DNA of 64,000 bases from Candidatus Micrarchaeota archaeon (GTDB lineage: Archaea > Micrarchaeota > Micrarchaeia > Anstonellales > Bilamarchaeaceae): the NCBI GenBank assembly GCA_038046805.1, contig JBBSVO010000006.1:215166-279165 (forward strand). Reading direction: 5' to 3'. The position numbers and the translations under genes are program-made. Positions 4,187 to 31,864 of the stretch are shown in pieces. The notes beneath the pieces were generated by a model that was not told the origin of the DNA, did not search any database, and saw only the letters and a list, made by a program, of their open reading frames with translations. Positions within the stretch are counted from its first letter, which is position 1. Each line of letters starts with the position of its first letter.

Positions 4187-5437
4187 TTATTTGGTCGTCT
4201 CTGCTTTATTTAGTATTTCCTCCATATTTTTCTTGTCATCCTCGCTTATGTTCTGCCCGGTGGTGTTCTCCTTTGTAGGATTTTCGAACGGTTCATCACT
4301 TTGTTTTATCGTAGTCTTGTTTGTGGTGGCAAACTCCTCGCACATCGCAACCTTGGTGGAGTTCATTATACTGCTGCATATACTGGCGTTTTTCATTGTT
4401 CCGCCAAGTTCAATGTAACAATCGTCTTTTATGCCAGATTCGGTTACGAGTTTGCATATTCCAGTGTCTTTAGCCATTATTGCTAAATTGAGAATGCAGA
4501 TATTCTTTCTTCCACCGGCAAATTCGCACAGTTCAAGGTTTTCTTTGTCCAATGCCATAGAATAAACGCATTTATCATGTTCTATTCCCTCTTTTTCAAG
4601 GCATGCTATAAACGCATTCTGGTCATCGCTTGCAGCCTGAAGCAGGGTGACGGCCTTTCCGGCAGTCAGGTTCTCCGGAACTATTATCTCCTTATCATAT
4701 TTCCAATCGGATGAAACAAGATTCCATTTACTCGTGCGATCCTTTCCAAGATAATTATATGCGAATTCCTTAGAGATAATTTCGTTCTTTTCTTCGTTAT
4801 AACATAGTTTACTTTCGTATCTCTTTGGATCTCCCTGTCTTACATTAAGGCTCATCGCCTCGCTTAAAGTAAGGTTTGAATAGTCTATAACAAAGTTTAC
4901 TTCCGAGCATTTTTCTCCTTTTTCCGTGGTTTCAATAACCTCCTCAAACGTAATGGTGTTTTTTCCCTTCAGGAATTCAAATGTTTCCTTTGCAGAATCT
5001 ATCTTTTCGTTGCTGAAAAATTGCCCTCCAATCACCTTTAAGTATTTCGAGAGGGCTGCACTGGTGTTTTTTACAGAACTGCAGGCATATTCATCTTCAT
5101 ATTCTACACACATTACCGTGTCGTTTTCCGCAAAATAAATATTTCTTTCAGATATTGGAGTTTCTATAGTTACCTGGCGCACTGCTCCGTTCTTGCGAAG
5201 TGTTGTCCTCATGACATATTCATCAAGCGTTTCGTCATAGGCATATTCGTAATCTGTTGCGCCCTGGCCAACAAGAAGGCTTTTTTCATATATTTCAAGC
5301 GCATTGCCTGTGCTATCTTCTCCTTCACCACCGTGTTTTTGAAGGTTCGGAAGTGCATACATATAAACCGCATAACCTGCGGCAAGGAAAACGATAATCC
5401 CTAAAACCACCAGCAAAATATTTTTTACATCTGTCAT
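4187..5437 (-). CDS. Membrane-anchored extracellular protein with Cys-rich C-terminal repeats
   Basis: Start moved to MTDVKNILL (5437) because the upstream part of the tracked ORF overlaps a tRNA; N-terminal TM helix; repeated CxxI..D.CY-type motifs. Confidence 0.7.
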   Translation of the reverse strand: MTDVKNILLVVLGIIVFLAAGYAVYMYALPNLQKHGGEGEDSTGNALEIYEKSLLVGQGATDYEYAYDETLDEYVMRTTLRKNGAVRQVTIETPISERNIYFAENDTVMCVEYEDEYACSSVKNTSAALSKYLKVIGGQFFSNEKIDSAKETFEFLKGKNTITFEEVIETTEKGEKCSEVNFVIDYSNLTLSEAMSLNVRQGDPKRYESKLCYNEEKNEIISKEFAYNYLGKDRTSKWNLVSSDWKYDKEIIVPENLTAGKAVTLLQAASDDQNAFIACLEKEGIEHDKCVYSMALDKENLELCEFAGGRKNICILNLAIMAKDTGICKLVTESGIKDDCYIELGGTMKNASICSSIMNSTKVAMCEEFATTNKTTIKQSDEPFENPTKENTTGQNISEDDKKNMEEILNKAETTK

Positions 5438-5493: not shown

Positions 5494-5895
5494 TGCAGGG
5501 GACAGGATTTTCAATTACCACGGGAGTATCACGCCTACGTTTTTCTTTTGGCGTGTCAGGAACGACCGACAAAACGACGCTTCGTTTTGTGGTCCATAAA
5601 ACGTTACGACGTTTTATCGGACGCATCGTTCCTGAGCATGTTCAAGAACGAAATGTCGTTCTTGACATGAAACCCTCAGACCTTTTCTTTTTTAAAAGAA
5701 AAGGGGTATGGGTTTGAACCTGTGAAGACGCTAGGTCATCAGATTTCCTATCCCGCATTCGGGAAAAGAACAAACGAGATCTTGAGTCTGACGCGTTTGA
5801 CCGTTGCGAAACCAGTTTCCAGTTGCCTGTTTCCAGTTCCCAAAACGCGAAACTGAAAACCCTAGACAGAAAACTGACTTCTCCGCCACCCCTGC
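5494..5895 (-). tRNA. tRNA-Leu(CAA) with three introns: D-loop (~5804-5880), anticodon loop (~5745-5780), T-loop 59/60 (~5508-5712)
   Basis: Reverse complement GCAGGGG-TG-GCGG-AG[77]CGGTCAAA-CGC-G-TCAGA-CT-CAA-G[36]A-TCTGA-long variable arm-ACAGG-TTCAAA[205]T-CCTGT-CCCCTGC-A; acceptor, anticodon and T stems pair perfectly after removal. Confidence 0.85.
5564..5621 (+). mobile_element. Double-hairpin micro-element copy 2 (inside tRNA-Leu T-loop intron)
   Basis: GA-CCGA-CAAAACGA cgct TCGTTTTG-TGGTCCA-TAAAACGT tacg ACGTTTTA-TCG-GA. Confidence 0.8.
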
Positions 5896-5955
5896 GCATT
5901 ATATTTGCTTTTTGCCGCACCACATTTTAAAACCTTGTTAGTCTATCATCTACTC

Positions 5956-7149
5956 ATGGCAGAGCCACTATGGTTCATTGAATACCCAGTATCATTCATC
6001 TCAATTTTCGTAGCCGTATTTTTCACACTGATTTATCTGAAGAATTTCAATAGGATGGAACACAAGTCAAAGCAGGCGCATGGCTGGGAACCAAAAATAA
6101 CAATTCTCATTCCTGCTTACAATGAGGAGAATTCTATAGCTGCATGTTTAGATTCAGTTCTGGCATCAGATTATCCTCGGGAAAAGATGGAAATACTTGT
6201 TCTGGATGACGGTTCTACTGATAAGACTGCAGAGATTGCCAAGCGTTATTCAACACATGGGGTAATCGTCTGCTCAAAAGAAAACACTGGAAAAGCAGAC
6301 TCTCTTAATTTCGGAATAAAAAAATCAACAGGAGAAATAATTGCAACGCTTGATGCGGATTCGTTTATAAGTCCATATTCCATACGCAGAATGCTTCCAT
6401 TGTTTGAAGATGAGACTGTTGGAGCGGTTGCTTCTGCAGTTAAAGTGAAAAAAGCAAAAAACCTATTGGAGGAGATCCAGCGCATAGAATATCTTTTTGC
6501 ATTATTTTCCCGCAAGGTTGTCAGCTTTATCGAATCCGTGCAGGTAACCCCCGGACCGTTTTCCATGTTCCGCAGATGGATTTTTGACAAGGTCGGCGAT
6601 TTTGATACAAAGAGCCTTGTTGAAGATCAGGAAATAGCACTGAGAATCCAATCTCATCATTACAAAATACGCTGCTCTCTCGATGCCGACGTTTTCACCG
6701 AAATCCCACGCACGTTCCTTGACTTGATGAAACAGCGCACCAGATGGCAACGCGGAGGGTTCTGGAACTCATTAAAATATCTTAAAATGATTAATCCAAA
6801 ATACGGGGATCTGGGAATGATTATTCTTCCGTTCGGTGTGTTTGGATATCTGATGCTTGTCATCTTCCTTGTGCTTGCGGTGTACTATATGTTTTATGGT
6901 TCTCCCTATCAGGAAGCGCTTAGCTATGATTCCTATCTGCTGGCATTCCGCGAGCTTCATGTTTTCGGAATTCTTATGATAGGCCTTGCGTTCCTGTGGC
7001 TGTTCTATGGGATGGGGAGGCTTTTCCGCGAGCAGGAGCTGCATCCAGTGTCAATCTTTTTATATATCATACTATATCCTATGTTGATAACGTTATTTTG
7101 GTTCTCCGCAGCGTATAAAGAGCTGCGCGGAGAGGGTTTCTCGTGGTAG
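5956..7149 (+). CDS. Family 2 glycosyltransferase (cellulose synthase/PgaC-like, multi-TM)
   Basis: IPAYNEE, DDGSTD, DAD, ED and QRTRW motifs. Confidence 0.9.
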   Translation: MAEPLWFIEYPVSFISIFVAVFFTLIYLKNFNRMEHKSKQAHGWEPKITILIPAYNEENSIAACLDSVLASDYPREKMEILVLDDGSTDKTAEIAKRYSTHGVIVCSKENTGKADSLNFGIKKSTGEIIATLDADSFISPYSIRRMLPLFEDETVGAVASAVKVKKAKNLLEEIQRIEYLFALFSRKVVSFIESVQVTPGPFSMFRRWIFDKVGDFDTKSLVEDQEIALRIQSHHYKIRCSLDADVFTEIPRTFLDLMKQRTRWQRGGFWNSLKYLKMINPKYGDLGMIILPFGVFGYLMLVIFLVLAVYYMFYGSPYQEALSYDSYLLAFRELHVFGILMIGLAFLWLFYGMGRLFREQELHPVSIFLYIILYPMLITLFWFSAAYKELRGEGFSW

Positions 7150-31757: not shown

Positions 31758-31864
31758 AAACTATTGCAGACTACTTCTTCCGAACTATTCAGTGAATTTT
31801 GCATCTTGAGTCCAAACAGTGAAACTCAAAACTCAGAACGCGAAACCCTAAACGCGGGACAATC

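Follow-up and report, generated by a model that had tools for sequence, protein, structure and literature searches.

The 402-nt stretch on the minus strand between positions 5895 and 5494 of the window (i.e., the whole 64,000-nt stretch of DNA that was analysed) is, with a probability of roughly 85 %, a working single-copy tRNA-Leu(CAA) gene, whose three introns would be removed by an endonuclease of the epsilon2 type and whose third intron would have grown in layers. The locus shows how introns shared between tRNA genes spread and grow. Such long introns keep a history, comprising a putative donor (the intron of tRNA-Cys), empty and filled sites, presence in one genome and absence from another of the same genus, and a first hint that the excised RNA may be stable, so that intron gain and growth become directly testable, with a soluble enzyme of this type already purified. 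According to the proposed pathway, the gene would be transcribed from an upstream TATA box as a single precursor of ~430 nt, the epsilon2 EndA, the gene of which is present, would cut three strict or relaxed BHB junctions of this RNA, and RtcB would join the four exons to the 84-nt tRNA. Because the endonuclease reads the junction helices only, the intron interiors would be free to lengthen, provided that they still fold back on themselves. The features of the locus are compiled in the following table.

Coordinates of the tRNA-Leu(CAA) gene, its promoter, and the layers of its third intron (positions in the window)
Feature	Position	Strand	Remarks
TATA-like box	5925..5932	minus	37 to 30 nt before the mature 5' end; likely promoter
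Exon 1, tRNA positions 1-15	5881..5895	minus	identical in G001
Intron 1, 77 nt, D-loop 15/16, HBh' motif	5804..5880	minus	junction unambiguous
Exon 2, D-loop to position 37, including the anticodon CAA	5781..5803	minus	
Intron 2, 36 nt, canonical 37/38	5745..5780	minus	not repeat-built
Exon 3, position 38, anticodon stem, variable arm, T-stem, and T-loop to position 59	5713..5744	minus	
Intron 3, 205 nt, T-loop 59/60, hBH motif	5508..5712	minus	absent from G001
Module A left part, core of the host intron	5668..5712	minus	contains the supposed 'decoy'
E1 left part	5620..5667	minus	placed in the small loop of module A
E2, about 56 nt	5564..5619	minus	located in the loop of the second E1 hairpin; ends uncertain by 2-3 nt
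E1 right part	5554..5563	minus	
Module A right part	5538..5553	minus	
Site-specific 30-nt tail	5508..5537	minus	carries the 4-nt T-loop helix partner
Exon 4, positions 60-73	5494..5507	minus	without encoded CCA

The three introns were delineated by spliced alignment to the tRNAs of two intron-poor relatives. All of their lengths coincide with those of the original prediction, which was made from the letters alone, and their removal leaves the expected cloverleaf (84 nt), which ARAGORN calls as tRNA-Leu(caa). Neither ARAGORN nor Rfam reported a single tRNA in the unspliced window, and relaxed ARAGORN settings yielded mostly noise. Central helices with the 3-nt bulge geometry were found at the three junctions. 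In intron 1, the central helix GCGG:TCGC forms 4/4 pairs and is accompanied by an intron-side helix (HBh'), the relaxed junction of intron 2 has 3/4 pairs (CTCA:TAGG) with both outer helices present, and the pairing TTCA:TGAA that had been proposed for the T-loop intron at 59/60 is indeed complete (4/4), the T-stem serving as the exon helix and the intron side having no adjoining helix (hBH). Taken singly, the comparison of these helices with shuffled sequences gave p = 0.024 for the T-loop, 0.065 for the D-loop, and 0.86 for the anticodon loop. Intron 1 folds into a single long hairpin (-27 kcal/mol) that consists mostly of two opposed 7-nt repeat tracts, by which it may have grown, and the fold of the whole gene has a z-score of -9.9 (100 shuffles). 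A TATA-like motif at -33 to -42 precedes 27 of the 40 tRNA genes as compared to 6 % of random intergenic windows (106/1651), and the box is also found upstream of the ortholog in G001, a genome of the same genus. An independent DNA run of another study (X4) covers the full stretch with 0 differing letters, which excludes an assembly chimera. None of the Rfam covariance models, including those for group I introns, matched at its gathering score; the three matches obtained are at chance level (E 0.29-1). The gene is flanked by a reading frame for a protein of 416 aa that is predicted to be membrane-anchored and lacks a Pfam match (window 4187-5437, minus strand) and by a family-2 glycosyltransferase gene (window 5957-7149, plus strand), and a longest-ORF call at 5626 wrongly crosses the tRNA gene.

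Heavy interruption is the rule in the genome of the host, a tiny archaeon of the Ca. Micrarchaeota from groundwater (G000; 86 % complete). The spliced aligner retrieved 41 tRNA genes, 40 of which contain introns, with Ser(GCU) alone being intron-free; splicing is thus obligatory. One intron is present in 13 genes, two in 20, and three in 6, and a permuted Ala gene carries two. The 69 introns measured have a median length of 51 nt (the introns of Phe and of the permuted Ala gene lie outside this set, which was used for length and clustering, and the intron junctions of Pro(CGG) and Thr(UGU) are approximate); tRNA-Leu(CAA) has the longest intron and is the longest tRNA gene of the genome. When 44 introns were aligned without recourse to the motif, their junction helices reached 3.25 versus 2.69 +/- 0.08 in 300 shuffles, a comparison that leaves out 12 of 40 loci with introns split or mis-set by the alignment. 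A second Leu(CAA) gene, and in particular an uninterrupted one, was not found in the 86 % complete assembly after masking of the locus, the best scores of 31-33 corresponding to background as compared to 86 at this locus. The anticodon-arm pattern for Leu(CAA) likewise matched once in G000 and exactly once in 119 of the 124 matching genomes (151 searched). No score above background was obtained in the genome for genes of Asn, His, Glu(CUC), Ser(GGA), and Arg(CCG), which the assembly may lack or which may be too heavily interrupted. Standard tools recover 6 tRNAs at E<=0.001 in the whole genome and overlook most tRNAs here, so that such genomes look tRNA-poor in their annotation. Among 30 relatives, the number of Rfam tRNA matches ranges from 2 to 63, which suggests that heavy tRNA interruption is patchy within the order.

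The splicing machinery is in place. EndA (393 aa) belongs to the epsilon2 type, with a full-length match to PDB 4FZ2 (E=1e-137), and keeps K161, Y236, H251, R275, K282, and W384, i.e., the loop lysine, the catalytic triad, and both recognition residues (residue numbers according to the accessible part of PMC3488258). Its relatives come almost all from Ca. Micrarchaeota records, and the RtcB ligase gene is intact. A relaxed-motif endonuclease and a ligase are accordingly encoded by the host, and exons are conserved as introns change, all of which agrees with the earlier view that the tRNA is functional, carries several introns, and depends on a relaxed endonuclease.

The ortholog in G001 is syntenic and shares 83 of 84 exon bases, within flanking DNA that is 81-86 % identical. 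Its D-loop intron (48 nt) has the same 4-nt helix partner and 39 of 77 columns identical to intron 1, and its anticodon intron agrees with intron 2 at 27 of 36 positions. The T-loop intron is missing from G001 Leu(CAA), reflecting either a gain in G000 or a loss in G001. Over 15 gene pairs of the two genomes, 18 intron sites are shared, 6 occur only in G000, and 8 only in G001. A broader set of 107 Leu(CAA) genes was assembled from 90 of 129 matches to the anticodon-arm pattern (newly aligned), 16 genes found before, and the G000 gene; the pattern overlooks genes interrupted between positions 22 and 36. Here, one intron is present in 70 genes, two in 28, three in 7, and four in 2, and T-arm introns occur in 33 of the 107. 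The canonical 37/38 site is used by 103/107 orthologs, and intron 2 would be the old canonical intron. It is also unmatched by all four module profiles described below, and the earlier statement that all three introns are built from repeat elements is overstated with regard to the 36-nt intron. With a median gene length of 135 nt (n=107), the 402-nt gene ranks second after a 488-nt gene in G034, by which it is ruled out as the longest such gene; the G034 gene (L287) has a 323-nt intron at the same T-loop site, which shows a perfect helix and contains an internal duplication as well as an E1-like element. A record number of introns can be ruled out as well, four being present in Leu(CAA) of G004 (L022:990-1224; sites 15/16, 30/31, 37/38, and T-arm) and of G007 (L292; sites 15/16, a second D-loop site, 37/38, and 59/60), and Asgard genes reach five.

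Intron 3 consists of a 91-nt host intron, a 58-nt double-hairpin element (E1), and a 56-nt double-hairpin element (E2), summing up to its full length (91 + 58 + 56 nt). At least five hairpins including a double-hairpin element had been described before; five or more hairpins are indeed present, and there are in fact two double-hairpin elements, one nested in the other. The 61-nt core of the host intron (module A) is identical at 60/61 positions to the core of the T-loop intron of tRNA-Cys, which has an empty site where E1 sits in the Leu intron. In addition, a double-hairpin similar to E1 occupies the same module-A loop in G150, and the site is empty in G003 (same genus). Intron 3 would have started as a structured module of ~90 nt that is common to several tRNA genes, with the tRNA-Cys T-loop intron as closest copy; subsequently, E1 would have entered the loop of module A and E2 would have entered E1. 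While the composition is directly visible, we infer this order because of the empty sites. The 30-nt tail of intron 3 is unlike the Cys tail (15/32 columns), and its end resembles the ends of the Leu(CAA) 59/60 introns of G005 and G003; judged by these similarities, intron 3 may combine parts of an older Leu intron with a core derived from Cys. The Cys cores of the two genomes G000 and G001 differ at two positions, at both of which the Leu core agrees with G000, and this two-site match is weak evidence that module A may have been copied after the G000/G001 split. At the 5' junction, the same eight bases are common to exon and intron in both Leu and Cys, which fits gene conversion; a stable excised intron RNA, in turn, would fit an RNA route. 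On balance, we lean somewhat towards DNA gene conversion via the shared T-arm sequence, rather than an RNA intermediate, as the way in which module A was copied.

Four module profiles were searched across the genome, in which tRNA introns amount to 4 % of the non-coding DNA as defined by a rough ORF annotation. E1 has 13 copies (2 in introns, p = 0.08; 10 intergenic; 12 outside ORFs) and E2 has 21 (4 in introns, p = 0.005; 14 intergenic; 18 outside ORFs). The heptamer tracts that had been noticed in the D-loop intron and in an intergenic tract are present, the latter at 31821-31848, and the genome holds 54 such arrays (6 intronic, 32 intergenic, 15 in ORFs, and 1 scored as exon), with none in shuffles. 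In tRNA introns, the density of the double-hairpin elements and of the heptamer arrays is 4-6 times that in other non-coding DNA. Introns are one tolerant site among many for E1, E2, and the heptamers. Modules A and B, on the other hand, are the intron bodies themselves and not passengers: 4 of the 10 copies of module A lie in T-loop introns (p = 0.0003) and 3 more beside tRNA-Val genes, and 16 of the 17 copies of module B lie in tRNA introns (with none in the tRNA-Leu(CAA) gene). Local sequence is shared with an intron of another gene by 27 of the 69 introns (0 in 20 shuffles). Whole-intron identity reaches 80 % for 2/69 introns (both of Gly genes), 70 % for 13, and 65 % for 23, with 0 in 5 shuffles each. 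Related intron sequence thus occurs in different tRNA types of one genome, but identity of at least 80 % over whole introns was not found across tRNA types; intron 3 is not among the 2/69, its whole-length identity being affected by the nested inserts, which alter the intron length.

These distributions bear on the suggestion, already part of the original prediction, that introns act as safe harbours for selfish repeats. In its strict form, introns would be neutral harbours for generic intergenic repeats and no intron family would be copied between tRNA genes, which is consistent with the predominantly intergenic location of E1 (10/13), E2 (14/21), and the heptamers (32/54), and with the 6/10 module A copies outside introns. 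However, the near-exclusive occurrence of module B within 4 % of the non-coding DNA, the presence of module A or B in 26 of the 155 Leu(CAA) introns from relatives, in the anticodon loop as well as in the T-loop, and the almost identical Leu and Cys cores speak against it, and we regard this account as rather unlikely. Of the original suggestion, the enrichment in introns holds, but most copies are intergenic and modules A and B form the introns instead of dwelling in them. Beyond the layered growth of intron 3, one may tentatively envisage structured mobile intron families (modules A and B; cores of ~60-100 nt; protein-free) that would spread between the tRNA genes of this order via excised, probably circular intron RNA, gain a site-matched junction helix, and present a hotspot loop invaded by double-hairpin mini-elements, i.e., a layered selfish system riding on the host endonuclease.

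Several further observations concern the modules. Module B is a structured family of roughly 65 nt with sites in the D-loop, anticodon loop, variable arm, and T-loop (e.g., C6:32827, C4:76187, and C8:6641) and is also found in 15/155 Leu(CAA) introns of relatives. Its only non-intron copy lies in a small array (G000:C3:77850-78110; L138), in which three repeats of roughly 23 nt end T-loop-like and are separated by intron-like units; parts of this array have matches in G001 and G003, a search of 20 relatives did not recover it in full, and it could be a concatemer of intron units. Module A is also part of a tandem duplication of 123 nt that lies apart from all tRNA genes found (G000:C3:36604-36781) and occurs immediately 3' of two tRNA-Val genes (G000:C2:39065 and C6:88246 onward; C7:19676), where it holds a third kind of double-hairpin at the loop occupied by E1 in the Leu intron. 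One of the heptamer tracts (G000:C2:79203-79229) is in frame with a tRNA-synthetase-like ORF, close to its beginning. The genome encodes one Y1 transposase, with an E1 copy ~65 nt from its Pfam match, which is a candidate mobiliser for E1 and E2 only.

Of the 20 sequencing runs listed, one of which is RNA, four were examined. A 201-nt contig from the RNA run, a metatranscriptome (depth 3.1), aligns from 5703 to 5508, wholly within intron 3, and stops exactly at 5508, i.e., the predicted last intron base and 3' splice site, with its last five letters unaligned (one contig from one study); the other four low-depth pieces, from X10 and X15, align in full. By rough arithmetic for a 1601-nt stretch, a clipped end would fall on one of the six splice sites ~0.4 % of the time. 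The contig provides a hint of a circular or linear excised intron, with which it is compatible, as it is with DNA carry-over. Neither a spliced exon joint nor an intron-less allele was seen in the four runs, the low-depth contigs of which cannot show absence. When the equilibrium fold of the 402-nt precursor is modelled, all three junction helices fail to form, and forcing them costs ~12 kcal/mol, which counts against the proposed pathway. This behaviour is common in the genome, as 43/69 junction helices also stay below 0.1 in the equilibrium-fold model. In prefixes of the nascent chain, the D helix attains values of up to 0.75, and the T helix forms locally at 0.58-0.81. These models may point to co-transcriptional folding and an ordered splicing of the precursor, but they do not speak in favour of the pathway.

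The folding models also touch on the question whether the gene, once functional, is now poorly processed or decaying because the precursor is misfolded by the recent nested insertion of 114 nt or by the T-loop intron as a whole, leaving UUG to be read by tRNA-Leu(UAA). The predicted equilibrium fold does pair intron 1 with intron 3, the latter is absent in G001, and a Leu(UAA) gene is present in the genome, the product of which can read UUG through wobble. Nevertheless, the exons are intact and the promoter is in place, the RNA contig stops at a splice site, G034 has the still longer intron with a perfect helix at the same site, and an identical allele was recovered in run X4 of another study. 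Moreover, TTG is used 4281 times in long ORFs as compared to 3250 for TTA. Decay of the locus is therefore considered improbable, and a working gene remains the preferred reading. The remaining alternative, in which the T-loop insert is an integration scar left by an element that recombined at the T-loop and brought along a partial tRNA 3' end, can draw on the C-rich stretch resembling a generic tRNA 3' strand at the start of module A and on the module A copies that start in T-loops (4/10) or lie immediately 3' of tRNA-Val ends (2), but is highly improbable in view of the true 3' exon that follows the insert with a 4/4 helix, the same, not gene-specific start of module A in Cys and Leu, its occurrence at anticodon sites in relatives, and flanking ORFs that are syntenic with G001 and have no cargo between them. 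The 'decoy 3' end' reported earlier does not hold up either. The same 11 bases open the T-loop intron of tRNA-Cys, the acceptor stem of which differs, and in Leu, 2/5 T-stem pairs are possible as read from the sequence; the stretch is the start of module A.

The gene is a member of the BHB class of multi-intron tRNAs, in which the multi-intron state is known, and, as far as the literature searched shows, the length of its introns and their layered, shared content are new. In ARMAN-2 (Ca. Micrarchaeum acidiphilum), 56 % of the tRNA genes are disrupted, with up to 87 % in other archaea, and its epsilon2 EndA cuts a strict motif and the 59/60 hBH motif in vitro (accessible part of PMC3239211). 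Phylum, EndA type, the 59/60 hBH intron, and several introns per gene are common to both systems (PMC3239211, PMC3488258, as far as accessible), and the tRNA-Ile(UAU) of ARMAN-2 was found in this genome, too. Unlike ARMAN-2, with tested introns of 13 and 25 nt in the text available, 40/41 genes are interrupted here by introns with a median of 51 nt and up to 205 nt that share structured modules. Thermoproteales are described as having three-intron tRNAs and intron transposition (Sugahara 2008 and Fujishima 2010, as cited in the accessible part of PMC4033280). Up to three BHB introns per gene and similar introns across tRNA genes are likewise found here, but the endonuclease type differs. More generally, archaeal tRNA introns measure 11-129 nt with medians of mostly 12-25 nt according to the accessible part of a 2014 review (PMC4090602); further background is available in part from PMC3728597 and PMC3293823. 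In Asgard archaea, 97 % of the genes are interrupted, with up to five introns per gene and a median of 22-23 nt, and the available text of this 2026 census describes no general copying, mobile-element, or reverse-transcription route and leaves intron arrival open (bioRxiv 10.64898/2026.10.13.758758). Near-universal interruption, D-arm and T-arm sites, neglect by standard annotators, and fast turnover are shared with the Asgard tRNA genes of that text, whereas the introns here are longer, number ~1.8 per gene, and display visible module sharing. Compared to the intron transposition in Thermoproteales, whole-intron identity is lower here (2/69 at 80 % versus the 28.3 % given in the accessible part of bioRxiv 10.64898/2026.10.13.758758, with different alignment methods), and long cores and nested elements are shared instead.

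REP/REPIN/BIME and MITE are classes of miniature elements, and E1 and E2 resemble them in being short, palindromic, multi-copy, and mostly non-coding. They differ from REP/REPIN and MITE in being double-hairpins of 56-58 nt that are found nested within the loops of one another and within intron modules, and their mobiliser is only a candidate. Long modular tRNA introns or elements of the E1/E2 type were not found described in the literature searched, which consisted mostly of papers available without subscription.

The host genome holds other unusual RNA genes. Its tRNA-Ala(GGC) gene is circularly permuted at 59/60 (G000:C4:76300-76042, minus strand; L137, L144), with positions 60-73 placed 16 nt upstream of the 5' part, a leader/trailer helix of 4/4 pairs, and two more introns; the layout is kept in G001 (L145:1507-1760), with differing introns and a module-B-like trailer. 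Archaeal cases of permuted tRNAs are known from Thermofilum pendens (accessible part of PMC3218864), and no description from Micrarchaeota was found in the same literature. A match to the archaeal SRP RNA model (G000:C2:59775-60029) is weak (54 bits, below the cut-off) and spans 255 nt only. The 16S rRNA gene (G000:C4:1-1088 and C9; L253, L222) is interrupted at least four times by inserts of about 35-45 nt, which are probably BHB rRNA introns and one of which includes heptamer-type repeats. Lastly, the sole reverse transcriptase found was set aside as an intron mover, as it looks like part of a diversity-generating retroelement. The locus (G000:C11:460-2581; L321) adjoins tRNA-Gly(CCC), and its layout presumably fits such a retroelement: the reverse transcriptase is split at a long C/G homopolymer (possibly an assembly error), and an AAC-rich template-like repeat is accompanied by a matching variable repeat that ends an upstream ORF of 235 aa.
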